From IMG/VR virus record IMGVR_UViG_2579778952_000009, positions 1 to 15,746 of that record: 15,746 nt of DNA; one strand, written 5' to 3'. The translations under genes were made by a program, and so were the position numbers. The stretch is from a virus. Its lineage: Duplodnaviria > Heunggongvirae > Uroviricota > Caudoviricetes. A model generated the notes under the pieces. It was not told where the DNA came from. It saw only the letters and a list, made by a program, of their open reading frames with translations, and made no database searches. Every line of letters begins with the position of its first letter. Position 1 is the stretch's first letter. This document shows positions 2,015 through 9,534 of this stretch, piece after piece.

Positions 2015-2332
2015 ATGGATGCTGGCGTTCTCGTTCTAGCAGTTCAACAATCCCCAATCACAAAACAATTCACTGATAACGAACTTTGCACACTCGCCTG
2101 GTTATGGCGAGCAGGGAATGTGATGTTAATTGCCTACCAGAACGTTACTCATCTTCTTCAGGATGCGGAGCATGGTGAAGCTGGTCACTTCACTTCCATC
2201 GAGCAAGAATATCCCCAGATACTCAACAGAGCGCGAGCAATCCTCGTCCGAGAAACGGCACATGTAAAACTTCAGCCGTGGCAGGATGATAAGTGGAGTC
2301 GAGTATTGCCGTATTTGCGTCAAATCTGTTAG
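2015..2332 (+). CDS. Hypothetical protein, 105 aa
   Basis: ORF with ATG start and a weak AGGGA Shine-Dalgarno upstream. No motif recognised. It lies in the cargo slot between the recombinase remnant and the KilA-N-like gene. Confidence 0.4.
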   Translation: MDAGVLVLAVQQSPITKQFTDNELCTLAWLWRAGNVMLIAYQNVTHLLQDAEHGEAGHFTSIEQEYPQILNRARAILVRETAHVKLQPWQDDKWSRVLPYLRQIC

Positions 2333-2536
2333 GAGTATAGCCGCCAGCCATGAGTGTTGTATTAAAACAAGGATGTCTATATATGGGATAGCGAGAGTAT
2401 GAATATCAGTTATTTTGAGAGTTAACTGATTGTGAAATTAGTTTTTTTCACAAACGAGTGGGGTTACTATGATGAGTGTTCTAATGCATAGGGAACACCT
2501 AATTTTTTCAATGAATTCAAATTGATAGGATCAAAA

Positions 2537-3466
2537 ATGGCACAACAGAGAACTACCTCCCTCAGATCCATACCTTTAGACTTAGATGTTAAGCAAGAGG
2601 CTGTCATTAACGGTATAGAAATGGGGGTACTCGATAACGGAATTCCGTACCTTACTCAGAATGGGTTGGCAAATGTTTGTGGTGTTCAGCGTTTGCGAAT
2701 CAAGGAAATTACCGATGAGTGGGCTCAATCCGTTGAGAACGGTATTTTCAAAAAAGGAAGAATGACTTTTATTGGTACATATCTTCTTAATGAAGGTTTT
2801 ACAGATGAAAAACTTTATATACCAATAATTCGAAATGGTGTTGAGTACCATGCTTATCCAGATGTTGTATGCATGGCTATACTTGAATACTATGCCTTTG
2901 AAGCAAAACAAGCAGAAAGTGAGACTGCAATTAGATCTTACAGAGAGCTTGCTAAAAAAGGCCTCAAGACATTTATATACGAGGCGCTAAAATATCAACC
3001 GGAGGACCCGTGGAGGCATTACCATGACAGAGTATCTTTATTAAAAGATAAGGGAACCATACCTGATGGGTATTTCATTATATTTAATGAAATTGCAGGT
3101 ATGATGGTAGATCTCATCAATGCTGGATTAGCGATTAATCAGCATACCGTACCTGATGGCAGTGTTGGTTCTTGCTGGGCGCGTCACTGGAAAGCAAAGG
3201 GGTTAGCAACAGAATTTGGAGAAAGAGTAGACTGTGAGCATTATTACCCTGAAGATTTTCTTCAGGCAAGTTCCAATCCTCAGATCATTAATGCCTATCC
3301 TGATTCTGCATTGTCAGAGTTTCGTAGATGGTTTAAGCATGAATATTTAACCACAAAGTTCCCACCGTATATTCTTAAAAAATCAAACGTGCTTCCTGGT
3401 GGTACAGAAGATGCTAATCGTCTGATAGAAGCTTTCAAAAAATCAGAGCTAGAAAATAAACCATAA
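2537..3466 (+). CDS. Hypothetical protein, 309 aa, with a KilA-N-like N-terminal segment (candidate antirepressor-like or BstA-like protein)
   Basis: Track ORF 2522-3466; the likely start is ATG 2537, preceded by AGGA at 2527-2530. The N-terminal segment VLDNGIPYLTQNGLANVCG resembles the KilA-N core pattern D-G-x-I-N-A-T-x-x-C-K-A-x-G and the second KilA-N protein in this window (EDGMICLTDMWKASG). The gene is AT-rich relative to the nin genes downstream. Confidence 0.55.
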   Translation: MAQQRTTSLRSIPLDLDVKQEAVINGIEMGVLDNGIPYLTQNGLANVCGVQRLRIKEITDEWAQSVENGIFKKGRMTFIGTYLLNEGFTDEKLYIPIIRNGVEYHAYPDVVCMAILEYYAFEAKQAESETAIRSYRELAKKGLKTFIYEALKYQPEDPWRHYHDRVSLLKDKGTIPDGYFIIFNEIAGMMVDLINAGLAINQHTVPDGSVGSCWARHWKAKGLATEFGERVDCEHYYPEDFLQASSNPQIINAYPDSALSEFRRWFKHEYLTTKFPPYILKKSNVLPGGTEDANRLIEAFKKSELENKP

Positions 3467-3564
3467 TTGTTTTTTGGCTTTTGATTTTACATAATCATTT
3501 TGCCATAATCATGTCATCGGAGCCTGAACAACTCCGGTGACTTCTGCGCTAAACGGGGACGTTT

Positions 3565-3666
3565 ATGCGCACATACAATCCAAACTCTCTTCTCCCTTCA
3601 CAGATGCAGAGATGCACCTGCGATTTTTTGCATCCAGCGTTTGACCTCTGCGGAGGTGAAGCGTGA
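3565..3666 (+). CDS. ylcH: Small protein, 33 aa (YlcH-like)
   Basis: Found by manual reading (below the track's size cutoff): ATG 3565 to TGA 3664-3666, [33 protein letters not shown]. Its stop overlaps the ybcN GTG start (GTGA), and its position matches ylcH in DLP12. Small ORF, so moderate confidence. Confidence 0.4.
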
Positions 3667-4118
3667 ATCTCCCACAAGATGGCATCAAATTACATCGCGG
3701 TAACTTCACCGCTATCGGTCGGCAGATCCAGCCTTATCTGGAGGAGGGCAAATGCTTTCGCATGGTGCTTAAACCGTGGCGTGAGAAACGCAGTCTTTCC
3801 CAGAATGCACTCAGCCACATGTGGTACAGCGAAATCAGTGAATACCTCATCAACAGGGGTAAAACGTTCGCCACTCCAGCTTGGGTAAAAGATGCTCTCA
3901 AACACACATATCTCGGTTATGAAACCAAAGACCTGGTTGATGTCGTAACCGGTGATATCACCACTATCCAGTCGTTACGCCATACCTCCGATCTTGATAC
4001 CGGAGAGATGTATGTCTTCCTGTGTAAGGTTGAAGCCTGGGCGGTGAATATTGGCTGCCACCTGACTATTCCGCAGAGCTGCGAGTTCCAGCTGCTCCGT
4101 GACAAGCAGGAGGCGTAA
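3663..4118 (+). CDS. ybcN: NinB-family recombination protein (YbcN)
   Basis: 151 aa with GTG start. The [18 protein letters not shown] region resembles lambda NinB (LDQNRKLWACLGDVS). The translation matches DLP12 YbcN from memory. Its stop overlaps the ninE start (TAATG). Confidence 0.85.
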
Positions 4119-4288
4119 TGGCTACACCGCTTATTCGTGTCATGAACGGACACATCTACAGAGTATCAAATCGTCGTAAGCGTAAGCCTGAGCCGAAGCC
4201 ATCCGAAATACCAACACTGCTCGGATATACCGCTAGCCTGGTTGATAAAAAATGGTTGCGACTGGCAGCAAGGAGGAATCATGGCTGA
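4118..4288 (+). CDS. ninE: NinE family protein, 56 aa
   Basis: Manually read [59 protein letters not shown]. It lies between ninB and ybcO as in lambdoid nin regions and overlaps the ybcO start by 8 nt. Confidence 0.7.
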   Translation: MATPLIRVMNGHIYRVSNRRKRKPEPKPSEIPTLLGYTASLVDKKWLRLAARRNHG

Positions 4289-4571
4289 TTTGAGAAAAGC
4301 AGCGCGTGGTCGGGAATGCCAGGTAAGAATCCCTGGCGTATGTAATGGCAATTCTGAAACGTCTGTACTGGCACATATCCGGCTGGCTGGATTGTGCGGT
4401 ACCGGTATCAAACCGCCAGACCTGATTGCCACCATTGCATGTTCTGCCTGCCACGACGAAATCGACCGCCGCACACATTTTGTCGATGCTGCATATGCAA
4501 AAGAATGCGCGCTGGAAGGTATGGCGAGAACACAGGTTATCTGGCTGAAAGAGGGGGTTATTAAGGCGTGA
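4281..4571 (+). CDS. ybcO: YbcO (DUF1364, putative nuclease), 96 aa
   Basis: ATG 4281 is preceded by AGGAGG at 4271-4277. [40 protein letters not shown]... is Cys-rich. Its stop overlaps the rusA GTG start. Confidence 0.8.
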
Positions 4572-4930
4572 ATACCTACAGCATCACATTACCCTGGCCT
4601 CCGAGCAATAATCGCTATTACCGCCATAATCGCGGGCGCACGCACATCAGCGCAGAAGGGCAGGCATACCGCGATAACGTCACCCGAATCATTAAAAACG
4701 CAATGCTGGATATCGGCCTGGCTATGCCAGTGAAAATCCGTATTGAGTGCCACATGCCGGATCGCCGTCGCCGTGACCTGGATAATCTGCAAAAAGCCGC
4801 TTTTGACGCACTCACCAAAGCAGGTTTCTGGCTGGATGATGCTCAGGTCGTTGATTACCGCGTTGTGAAGATGCCTGTTACCAAAGGTGGGAGGCTGGAA
4901 CTGACCATCACCGAAATGGGGAATGAATGA
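4568..4930 (+). CDS. rusA: Holliday junction resolvase RusA
   Basis: 120 aa with GTG start. [26 protein letters not shown]...[29 protein letters not shown] matches RusA from memory, including the catalytic Asp-rich region. Confidence 0.9.
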
Positions 4931-5725: not shown

Positions 5726-6808
5726 TTAGAACTGGTAAACCAGACCTACAGCAACGATGTCATCAGTATCAATACCAGCTGTTTTGGTAAACTTACTATC
5801 GTCAATTAAGTTGATTTTGTAATCAACAAAAGTGGACATGTTTTTATTAAAGTAGTAAGTAGCACCGACATCGACATACTTGACTAAGTCTCGGTCACCA
5901 TGAACACCAAGGTCTTTACCTTTTGACTGAAGGTAAGCAACAGATGGGCGCAGACCGAAGTCAAACTGATATTGTGCTACTGCTTCAAAGTTTTGTGCTT
6001 TGTTTGCAATATGGTTATTACCAAAAACGGTCATATTCTGAGTTTCAGAATATGTGGTAGCCAGATAGATATTGTTCGCATCATATTTCAGGCCTGCAGC
6101 CCATACTTCCGCATTTTTGCCGGAGGCATTGAATTTGCTCTTACCATAGGCGACCTGACCGTCAGTGCGATCTGATTTAGCATAGGTTGCACCCACGCCG
6201 AATCCTTCATACTCATAAGTAGTGGAGAAACCGAAACCATCACCATTGGCTTCAGTTACGTCAGTGCGGTCATTTTTACCCTGATACTGAGCAGCAAAGT
6301 TCAGGCCATCGACCAGACCAAAGAAGTCGTTGTTACGATAAGTTGCAACACCAGTAGTGCGACCAGTCATGAACACATCTGTTTGGGTCCAGGTATCACC
6401 ACCGAATTCTGGCAGGACGTCAGTCCACGCACCGATGTCGTATGCTACACCGTAGTTACGGCCGTAATCGATTGAGCCGTAATCACCAAATTTCAGGCCT
6501 GCAAATGCAAGACGGGTTTTGTCTTTGGAAGAACCTTGAGATTCAGCGCGGTTGCCTTTGAATTCATATTCCCACTGACCGAAACCAGTCAGTTGATCGT
6601 TGATTTGGGTTTCACCTTTGAAGCCAAGACGGGCATAAGTAGTATCACCATCATCTGCATCATTAGAGGAGAAGTAGTGCTTAGCATTAACTTTCCCGTA
6701 CAGATCCAGCTTGTTACTGTCTTTATTATAAATTTCAGCTGCCTGAGCAGACATCGCCATCAGTACTGATGCAGCTACAGCAGAAATTGCCACTGTTAAT
6801 TTTTTCAT
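5726..6808 (-). CDS. nmpC: Outer membrane porin NmpC/Lc (OmpC family), apparently intact
   Basis: The track ORF is 5726-6868; the start is set at the internal [23 protein letters not shown] signal peptide (ATG at 6808 with an AAGGG SD). The protein has an AEIYNKD mature N-terminus and the C-terminal beta-barrel signature ...VAVGLVYQF. No insertion sequence interrupts it. Confidence 0.9.
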
Positions 6809-7235
6809 CGTGAGCCCTTTTTTTGAACTATTATTAAAAAATGATGTCACTGCGTGATAAATATTCATCTAATCAATGTGATTATTTCAAGATGTAAGTT
6901 TTGGTTTCTCGTTTAATTTGTGAAGTAGATCTCTATTTTTATCTGAACTTTTTTCTATCGAATCCTATTCATGGCTCTTGGCTGAATAAAAATAAATCTA
7001 TTAGCCAATTTATATTAATGGCTGTTATTTATAAGTGCTCTATAATTTGAAGGTTCAATTTAAATTGGCTAAAAATAACGCTGGAAATTATTTGTTGGTT
7101 ATTTGTTGAGATTTGCTTATGTATTTGTAGTGGTGTTTTCAATACTCGGTAGCATTCTCGCAAATATCATTTAGTGGTTTACGTACGTAAAAAATTGGTT
7201 ATGCTGTTAAGAGTGGTTACTTCGTCACACAGCTT

Positions 7236-8728: not shown

Positions 8729-9226
8729 ATGAAATCATTAACCCTCTTCAATCAACCAATTCGTATCGGTGAAGATGGCATGATCTGCCTCACTGATATG
8801 TGGAAAGCCAGTGGTAAAAGTGAATCTGAATCGCCTTACCACTACCTGCGAAACAAGCAGACCAAAGAGTTCTTAGCCGAGCTGGAGAAAAACCACGAAT
8901 CTGTGGTTTTTACTGAGCGCGGTGTACACGGTGGAACATATGGCGGGAAGTTTGTTGCTTACGATTATGCGGCTTGGTTAAACCCCGGGTTCAAGTACGC
9001 GGCCTATAAAGTCCTCGATGACTACTTCACCGGAGAACTTCAGCATCGCAACAGCTTAAGTGCGCAGCTCAACATGAAATGTCATGAGTTTGACCAGAAG
9101 AAAGACATGGCGAGCTTCTGCGGACAAGGGCTGGCAGCATGGCGCTATACGAAGCCAGTGTTGGTCGCTGAGATTAACTCCCTGGCTAACCAGCTGCAGA
9201 TTACGATCCCCGGGCTTCCGGGATGA
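8729..9226 (+). CDS. KilA-N domain protein, 165 aa (antirepressor-like)
   Basis: IRIGEDGMICLTDMWKASGKSESESPYHYLRNKQTKEFLAELEK fits the KilA-N pattern (DG-x-I-x-x-T-x-x-x-K-A-x-GK ... W/YLR-x-x-x-T-x-EFL). Its stop overlaps the next ORF's start (ATGA). Confidence 0.7.
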   Translation: MKSLTLFNQPIRIGEDGMICLTDMWKASGKSESESPYHYLRNKQTKEFLAELEKNHESVVFTERGVHGGTYGGKFVAYDYAAWLNPGFKYAAYKVLDDYFTGELQHRNSLSAQLNMKCHEFDQKKDMASFCGQGLAAWRYTKPVLVAEINSLANQLQITIPGLPG

Positions 9227-9534
9227 GTGATCGTGTTATTGAATGCGCCTCCAGAGCGGGGCGCGACTTCTCAGAGTTCATGAAAGGCGAGAAGGGCATG
9301 ATGGAAGCATTGGCCTCGGTGGATGAGTTTGGCGAGCAGCTGCGCCTCAACGGCTGTGTCAATCATCACTTTGTTAGCTACATGATGCGGAACTCGATCA
9401 TGCAGGCATTCATGGACATGGCAAAAGCCGAGAGGAAAGAAGAGCGCCGGCGGAAGCAAAAGCGAAGTAGCCATTACAAAGCCTATCTACGGGTGGGCTT
9501 GATAATGGCTTATACCCTACACGGGATAACTTAA
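9223..9534 (+). CDS. Hypothetical protein, 103 aa, translationally coupled to the KilA-N gene
   Basis: ORF overlapping the upstream stop by 4 nt, with a basic C-terminal stretch KAERKEERRRKQKRSSHYKAY. No motif recognised. Confidence 0.45.
   Translation: MSDRVIECASRAGRDFSEFMKGEKGMMEALASVDEFGEQLRLNGCVNHHFVSYMMRNSIMQAFMDMAKAERKEERRRKQKRSSHYKAYLRVGLIMAYTLHGIT

Follow-up and report, generated by a model that had tools for sequence, protein, structure and literature searches.

A BstA-family gene in the ybcK–ybcN slot of a DLP12-like prophage and a candidate aba element across its start codon

The window, the whole stretch of 15,746 nucleotides of viral DNA analysed here, carries a gene for a 309-residue protein that is a member of the BstA family. 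We regard it as highly probable that this protein is an abortive-infection factor and that its gene is a single-gene moron of a DLP12-like lambdoid prophage. Both the family and the exact sequence are already known, and the gene is routinely detectable: PADLOC, the PHROGs and recent PGAP annotation all name it. Judged by sequence comparison, only four points appear to go beyond the searchable literature, namely the non-canonical slot in which the gene lies, a candidate aba element, a spacing rule for a repeat pair across the family, and a link to IS1595-family elements.

Family identity and domain layout

The coding sequence (WP_000068668.1) is intact from its ATG to its TAA, and a Shine–Dalgarno sequence precedes it at a suitable distance, as a sequence-only reading of this DNA had described.

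2537–3466, + strand: bstA coding sequence, 309 aa, assigned from profile matches and from a cluster representative with PF26567 (BstA_C)
2527–2530, + strand: Shine–Dalgarno sequence AGGA, 6 nt 5' of the ATG, read directly from the sequence

Matches to BstA profiles extend over the full length of the protein. The PADLOC BstA model (PDLC02356) aligns with residues 10–304 over profile positions 5–291 of 292 (E 3.6e-121), and PHROG 6287, annotated as 'BstA abortive infection system, replication inhibitor', matches from end to end (E 1.8e-136). BstA-BTP1 is 40% identical over 306 aa, again end to end, and the BstA-Ec type is 38% identical. The copy in Escherichia coli NCTC8623 encodes a protein 100% identical to that of the window, and this copy (LR134234, 4557005–4557922) is one of 72 BstA homologues that Owen et al. 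2021 (PMC8585504) list in their Table S1, so the BstA assignment of this exact protein is already published. The sequence-only reading had left the choice between BstA, an Ant protein and something new, and had proposed a search with BstA profiles; the full-length PADLOC and PHROG matches, the identity to BstA-BTP1 and the perfect match to a listed homologue settle it for BstA. Identity with the experimentally characterised BstA-Ec was also considered and is rejected, since BstA-Ec is a separate 897-bp entry in the same table, with its own upstream primer site and 38% identity.

A search of 5.8 billion proteins returned 1250 relatives, and PF26567 (BstA_C) is present in all among the matches listed. 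Across 35 diverse homologues 64 columns are invariant, and the window protein retains every one of them. Local Pfam and NCBIfam scans contain no model that matches it, which accounts for the name 'hypothetical protein' in older RefSeq annotation and 'BstA C-terminal domain-containing protein' in newer annotation. The AF2 model (mean pLDDT 83) has two domains connected by a low-confidence hinge at residues 160–170: an N-terminal domain of β-hairpin and helix and a helical C-terminal domain, which reaches a pLDDT of 85 when modelled separately. The modelled boundary agrees with the published BstA domain boundary (Owen et al. 2021, PMC8585504). Sequence and profile searches of the PDB found no relative.

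The protein had also been described as KilA-N-like, with an N-terminus resembling the KilA-N core of the ORF at 8729. That ORF encodes a true KilA-N and ORF11CD3 protein (KilA-N E 1.3e-15) and provides a positive control. The same Pfam model (PF04383) does not match the 309-residue protein even at E values up to 10, BLASTP finds nothing in common between the two proteins, and hhalign gives a probability of 0.2% when a profile of 35 BstA homologues is aligned with one of 17 relatives of ORF 8729. The proposed resemblance is not borne out by these comparisons, and KilA-N membership is rejected on the Pfam, NCBIfam, BLASTP and hhalign results. A remote KilA-N homology of BstA is stated by Owen et al. 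2021 (PMC8585504), and Foldseek against viral models (BFVD) returns low-TM matches enriched for antirepressor, Bro, KilA-N, Rha and 'repressor domain' proteins, the weak fold matches of the N-terminal domain being DNA binders of the APSES/KilA-N, Bro and antirepressor types. 'KilA-N-like' is therefore at best a statement about fold class; a weak resemblance at that level stands, and membership of the Pfam family does not. From the DNA-binding domains of KilA-N/APSES, Bro-N and Ant proteins the window protein differs in having no Pfam KilA-N match, no profile similarity and no PDB sequence relative.

These fold matches bear on a different reading, in which the protein is a regulator of the Ant, KilA, Bro or Rha class that displaces or binds the prophage repressor, or regulates transcription, instead of aborting infection. 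A PADLOC HTH model that matches residues 25–150 (E 2e-8) and a Rha-type remnant located directly upstream of bstA point the same way. The Pfam scan, however, finds no P22_AR_N, P22_AR_C, ANT/KilAC, Bro-N or Rha domain in the protein, its profile shows no similarity to that of a real KilA-N family, and over its full length it matches BstA, a family in which the members tested act in defence. The Rha remnant is a gene of its own, truncated, and occurs also where bstA does not. We consider an antirepressor-type function very improbable.

The insert, its slot and the carrier prophage

The gene occupies a discrete insert between a serine-recombinase remnant and the nin genes.

1–713, + strand: IS1, partial at the window edge and truncating ybcK, 99% identical to IS1A (InsB matches DDE_Tnp_IS1, E 2e-78)
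714–1903, + strand: ybcK serine-recombinase remnant, left border of the slot, 384 of 508 aa, N-terminal part missing
2015–2332, + strand: 105-aa ORF, the 5'-truncated C-terminal half (P22_AR_C) of a Rha-family protein (Pfam P22_AR_C, E 7.7e-14)
2321–3479, + strand: bstA-specific single-gene insert (moron) of 1.16 kb, comprising an AT-rich leader, bstA and 13 bp past the stop codon, with borders set by comparison with phage Turner
2445–2473, + strand: weak σ70-like promoter match (TTTTCA-17-TATGAT) from a consensus scan only, overlapped by an inverted repeat, TGTGAAA-N8-TTTCACA (2431–2452)
3663–4930, + strand: ybcN–ninE–ybcO–rusA nin block, right border of the slot, from the RefSeq annotation of identical sequence

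The borders of the insert follow from the free lambdoid phage Turner, which is homologous to the window over 714–2320 and again from 3480, leaving 2321–3479 as the bstA-specific segment. Homology to DLP12 of the E. coli B/K-12 type ends at 1912 and resumes at 3504, with ybcL and ybcM in the intervening position. The earlier proposal of an exchangeable moron slot with different cargo in K-12 is thus sustained, and the 'recombinase remnant' on its left side proves to be ybcK cut by IS1. The slot is used by other defence genes as well: PD-lambda-1 in phage PhiR26_1 occupies the same region upstream of ybcN. In the GE3 prophage, a SIR2 protein is encoded at the rexAB position. Base composition agrees with the earlier description on both counts, with 33.8% GC in the 204-bp upstream spacer (2333–2536) and 39.0% in bstA versus 51.0% in ybcN–rusA (3663–4930). 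The ybcK remnant, at 36.3% GC, lies below bstA itself.

The 105-aa ORF immediately upstream corresponds to the C-terminal half of the Rha protein (202 aa) of phage PhiR26_1, with 82% identity. A two-gene system composed of bstA and this ORF was considered and rejected. The ORF belongs to the context and is not a partner of bstA, because it is a Rha gene reduced to its 3' half, adjoins ybcK also in phage Turner, which lacks bstA, and is missing beside other BstA homologues; in NCTC8623 it is a pseudogene.

The carrier is a DLP12-like lambdoid prophage located at the tRNA-Arg gene beside fimZ. The insert is present at ≥99% identity in 110 of 5426 complete E. coli genomes (~2%), always chromosomal and in single copy. 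In GE3 and NCTC8623 the prophages look complete, with integrase, repressor, O/P, nin, Q, lysis, terminase, portal and capsid genes. In the genomes identical to the window the prophage is defective: only part of the integrase is left, the repressor and O have been lost through a bet–P fusion deletion, the terminase is cut and the head genes are absent. Between NCTC8623 and the window the insert is 99.9% identical, compared with 96.8% for the adjacent nin region, which suggests a recent exchange of the cassette. Several E. coli genomes contain IS-inserted or truncated copies of bstA, and these may reflect a cost of the gene or its decay.

With ybcK to its left and ybcN to its right, bstA follows the replication genes of the prophage and departs from the canonical post-repressor position. 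Owen et al. 2021 (PMC8585504) called the position downstream of the prophage repressor, with a shared promoter, 'strikingly conserved' and proposed PRM as that promoter; the same paper also lists homologues outside this position. BstA genes directly follow the repressor in BTP1, in Lonsdalea, in the BstA-Ec type and in one further locus of our set (L130). Relatives in IMG/VR that are ~90% identical in protein sequence are, like the window gene, intact and not behind a repressor, and one of them follows a dATP/dGTP pyrophosphohydrolase–DUF551 gene. The post-repressor position is therefore a typical but not an obligatory feature of BstA. It had been suggested that homologues in classical immunity regions would count against a defence role. 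This expectation was ill-posed, as BstA-BTP1 itself and many homologues directly follow a cI repressor.

Since the window gene is not behind a repressor, the PRM promoter cannot be used and its expression control would have to differ from the family model. Promoter and terminator scans of the bstA region gave nothing above chance (five σ70 sites, with 4.6 expected), and the σ70-like site at 2445–2473 is not kept in relatives. Transcription may come from a promoter of its own or by read-through from upstream.

These observations raise the alternative that bstA is an intact but silent or decaying hitch-hiker in a dead prophage, unexpressed since the repressor-promoter context was lost. It would fit the gene losses in the closest genomes, the IS1 that cuts ybcK, the outcome of the promoter scan and the disrupted or truncated copies elsewhere. 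Against it, the ORF is identical in ~100 genomes, including those with the intact-looking GE3 and NCTC8623 prophages, and every family-invariant residue is kept. The higher conservation of the insert relative to its flanks points to recent spread and not to decay, and the ~90%-identical relatives outside the cI slot likewise retain an intact gene. We judge a silent relic improbable.

Repeat pair across the start codon

The self-immunity element of BstA-BTP1, aba, is a 63-bp DNA segment made up of 29 bp upstream of bstA and the first 34 bp of the gene (Owen et al. 2021, PMC8585504). Function depends on the CCCGCC direct repeats at its two ends, spaced 56 bp apart, and is abolished by single substitutions in one repeat; the element acts as DNA at high copy (PMC8585504). 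Each BstA homologue tested has a cognate aba in its own locus (PMC8585504). The window contains a repeat pair of similar layout.

2490–2558, + strand: candidate cognate aba or BstA operator element, two imperfect AGRGAAC-ACCT repeats 57 bp apart astride the start codon
2490–2500, + strand: repeat copy 1 (AGGGAACACCT), at –47 from the ATG, with AGGGAAC; motif and position as in relatives
2547–2558, + strand: repeat copy 2 (AGAGAACTACCT), at +10 in codons 4–8, with AGAGAAC; its start is 57 bp from that of copy 1

AGRGAAC occurs only three times on both strands of the 15.7-kb window (2490, 2547 and 3051), always on the + strand and always within the bstA insert. Relatives with ~90% protein identity have AGrGAaCACCCT at –47 and AGAGAwCnACCT at +10, the position and motif of copy 1 recur in four further loci (L006, L007, L010 and L089), and more distant members of the clade contain AGGGAACACCCT and AGAGATCACCCT, likewise 57 bp apart. 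DNA homology between the window and relatives in otherwise unrelated contexts starts at 2490–2493, with no alignment upstream of this point. The two copies in the window are imperfect and match at 7 of 12 positions when aligned ungapped, or at 10 of 11 with a 1-nt gap. On the basis of the 57-bp spacing, the clade-conserved motif and position and the start of homology at copy 1, we assign 2490–2558 as a candidate aba of the window's E. coli allele. A test for a self-immunity element internal to the ORF had been proposed; copy 2 does lie within the coding sequence, but copy 1 is upstream, so the candidate spans the start codon and is not internal. An exact 8-mer, TTTTTTCA, that occurs at 2443 and 2503 (60 bp apart) was rejected as the aba repeat: both copies lie upstream of the gene, the first is not retained in relatives, and the interval does not fit.

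A similar spacing is found throughout the family. In 81 BstA loci from species-dereplicated genomes, we located the best direct repeat near the start codon; its spacing is 57 bp in 30 loci and 56 bp in 11 (41 of 81 together), versus 0–4 at ten control offsets. An independent set of 65 non-identical IMG/VR viral loci gave 57 bp as the best spacing in 23, with each other spacing found in ≤5 loci. The sequence of the repeat is specific to the lineage: CCCGCC in BTP1, ATCCCT in the BstA-Ec type, GGCCACC(C) in alphaproteobacterial homologues and AGrGAaCACCCT in the window clade. In the BstA-Ec-type locus, AGCAGATCCCTACA at –39 and AGCGAATCCCTGCA at +18 form an ATCCCT pair 57 bp apart, and the cloning-primer site of Owen et al. 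lies at –86. A Klebsiella phage homologue has TGGTCAyCA at –31 and +26. The searchable text and supplements of Owen et al. 2021 (PMC8585504) contain no mention of repeats in the homologues or of IS1595 cargo, and a full-text literature search on BstA, aba and direct repeats likewise found no mention of the homologue repeats.

The repeat pair is not confined to prophage-borne copies. In 21 of 68 genomic loci (about a third), the gene directly upstream of bstA on the same strand encodes an IS1595-family transposase, with Zn_ribbon_IS1595 and DDE_Tnp_IS1595 domains (E 1e-39). DNA homology between species at these loci extends from ~70 bp 5' of the transposase gene as far as the stop codon of bstA. 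In 15 of 18 loci a conserved left end, CCTATATACTTAGCTAGCC, is matched by an inverted copy 3' of bstA, between 15 bp and ~2.2 kb past the stop codon; the ends were found by a motif search with the conserved left end, as generic inverted-repeat finding gave none. The left end and its inverted downstream copy place bstA, on this evidence, inside an IS1595-family transposable unit. The repeat pair persists in these IS1595-borne genes, where a longer in-frame ORF would put both repeats within coding sequence. If this reading is true, BstA would not be strictly a prophage system.

From these patterns we put forward, as a proposal with about even chances of being right, that all BstA systems share, as their general aba and operator, a repeat pair spanning the start codon with a spacing of 56 or 57 bp. 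The repeats would be BstA binding sites whose sequence sets cognate specificity, 2490–2558 would be the aba of the window, and the same module would also travel as IS1595 cargo. A competing explanation treats the pair primarily as an autoregulatory operator or translation-control site, with self-immunity in BTP1 arising secondarily from titration. Two observations suit such an operator: in every lineage the ribosome-binding site and start codon lie between the repeats, and the pair persists in the IS1595-family copies, which have no lytic cycle to protect. On the other side, induction of the BTP1 prophage requires aba, which works in trans, as DNA, at high copy number. One role does not preclude the other, and we consider a primarily regulatory function possible though rather unlikely.

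Proposed activity and comparison with known systems

The activity envisaged for the window protein derives from homology with BstA-BTP1, BstA-Ec and BstA-Kp, all of which defend despite ~40% mutual identity (Owen et al. 2021, PMC8585504). BstA would be produced in the lysogen and, upon infection by a heterologous phage, would gather at the replicating phage DNA and stop its replication, so that the infected cell lyses without progeny and the population is protected. When the carrier prophage itself replicates, aba on its amplified copies would neutralise the cognate BstA. We infer that aba does so by supplying BstA's own binding sites, that is, by titration, with the repeat sequence of each lineage setting cognate specificity. 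The carrier in the window is defective and cannot replicate; if bstA is expressed there, the protein would be a domesticated host defence and the aba dispensable. Several features count against this activity at the window locus: the allele is only 38–40% identical to the tested BstA proteins, its position is non-canonical and comes with no convincing promoter, its repeats are imperfect, and copies elsewhere are IS-disrupted or truncated.

BstA-BTP1, from prophage BTP1 of Salmonella Typhimurium D23580, resembles the window system in family, two-domain layout, prophage location and length (307 versus 309 aa), and both have a direct-repeat pair astride the start codon, with a spacing of 56 bp in BTP1 and of 57 bp in the window. 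The two differ in that BTP1 bstA directly follows the cI repressor whereas the window gene lies in the ybcK–ybcN (nin) slot, and in the repeat itself, CCCGCC in BTP1 and AGRGAAC-ACCT in the window. The NCTC8623 homologue has the identical protein and the same ybcK–bstA–ybcN arrangement, but its carrier looks complete from integrase to portal and that of the window is a remnant. BstA-Ec (E. coli NCTC10963) and BstA-Kp (Klebsiella pneumoniae 52.145) belong to the same family and have a cognate aba in their loci. The BstA-Ec-type locus shares the 57-bp arrangement across the start codon, in the form of its ATCCCT pair; unlike the window gene, BstA-Ec lies after a LexA-like repressor and before N. 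Lambda RexAB and PD-lambda-1 are similarly prophage-encoded defences in exchangeable slots, although their proteins and mechanisms are unrelated.

Taken alone, the finding contributes little: a BstA gene was correctly spotted, and its exact sequence stands in the homologue table of the founding paper. It does show that the window lineage, which ~2% of complete E. coli genomes contain, occupies the nin-region slot in prophages of the DLP12 type instead of the post-repressor position. The locus would also be a natural example of BstA retained in a dead prophage that no longer requires self-immunity. The 56/57-bp repeat pair across the start codon gives a simple, testable rule for locating aba. 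If confirmed, the repeat rule and the IS1595 cargo would help to explain the cognate specificity between BstA and aba and the spread of the system.

A direct-repeat pair at the bstA start codon

Across the BstA family, the start codon of bstA is straddled by a pair of direct repeats with a spacing of 56 or 57 bp. In a survey of the DNA around each start codon (comparison loci L010-L088 and L095-L174; window equivalent 2490-2558), this pair was the top-scoring direct repeat at 41 of 81 genomic bstA loci, where control offsets gave 0-4, and likewise at 23 of 65 viral ones. The sequence of the repeats is specific to each BstA lineage. Judged by sequence, the family-wide pair is a predicted generalization of the architecture of aba, the self-immunity DNA of BstA mapped in the Salmonella prophage BTP1; no mention of such a pair was found in the text or supplements of Owen et al. 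2021 (PMC8585504).

The repeat motif of the window's candidate aba, AGRGAAC, has copies at 2490 and 2547 and occurs elsewhere in the window only at 3051-3057, where a third copy (AGGGAAC) lies within bstA on the same strand. Upstream of the gene, the inverted repeat TGTGAAA-N8-TTTCACA (window 2431-2452) overlaps the -35 element of the sole promoter-like site. The T-run in its loop varies in length (T7 in the window, T8 in NCTC8623), and the inverted repeat shows no conservation in relatives.

bstA within IS1595-family elements

Transposable elements of the IS1595 family enclose BstA homologues at a series of loci (L012, L013, L014, L018, L021-L023, L027, L028, L031, L035, L036, L047, L049, L052, L064, L066, L069, L075 and L081), with the transposase gene directly upstream of bstA. 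The left end of these elements, CCTATATACTTAGCTAGCC, is conserved, and a matching copy in inverted orientation, the right end, lies downstream of bstA, with additional cargo sometimes positioned between the gene and the right end. Database annotations of the IS-borne homologues give a longer in-frame ORF of 341-346 aa.

Features of IS1595-family elements carrying bstA
L014 145-2211: example of an element with bstA
L018 5848-6873: longer in-frame bstA ORF
L013 5854-6882: longer in-frame bstA ORF
L018 7228-7719: cargo, HEXXH (ImmA/IrrE-like) ORF

If the putative start of the longer ORF is used, both DNA repeats of the IS-borne genes would be translated, giving two copies of (T/S)PATP at a distance of 19 residues.

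Disrupted bstA copies and neighboring genes

Several genomes contain truncated bstA copies or IS1, IS2 or IS3 insertions in or beside the gene (E. coli genome matches H1-H6 and H86; protein cluster P0039, 187 aa, with 54 member sequences). These lesions may indicate that the gene is costly, or they may be part of normal prophage decay.

Other genes of the window
5726-6868, -: porin gene, an nmpC/ompC-like moron flanked by quuD and the lysis genes
8729-9226, +: KilA-N + ORF11CD3 protein (Pfam E 1.3e-15 and 2.4e-13)
9223-9534: 103-aa ORF, no family match

The porin gene is intact here, whereas an IS1 interrupts its E. coli B counterpart (L005 6291-8150). The ORF at 8729, in which the sequence-only reading had seen a KilA-N core, is a genuine KilA-N + ORF11CD3 protein by its two Pfam matches and is unrelated to BstA; it follows the lysis genes and precedes the 103-aa ORF.

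Related prophages carry other defence cargo. The rexAB position beside the repressor holds a SIR2-family protein in the E. coli GE3 prophage (L001 6493-8094), and PD-lambda-1 is found in the region upstream of ybcN in phage PhiR26_1 (L090 1-1391). On one viral contig (L119 1390-2361), a putative AbiC-family protein (Pfam putAbiC, E 3e-13) is immediately followed by a BstA homologue with 65% protein identity, a pair that would be a small defence cluster.
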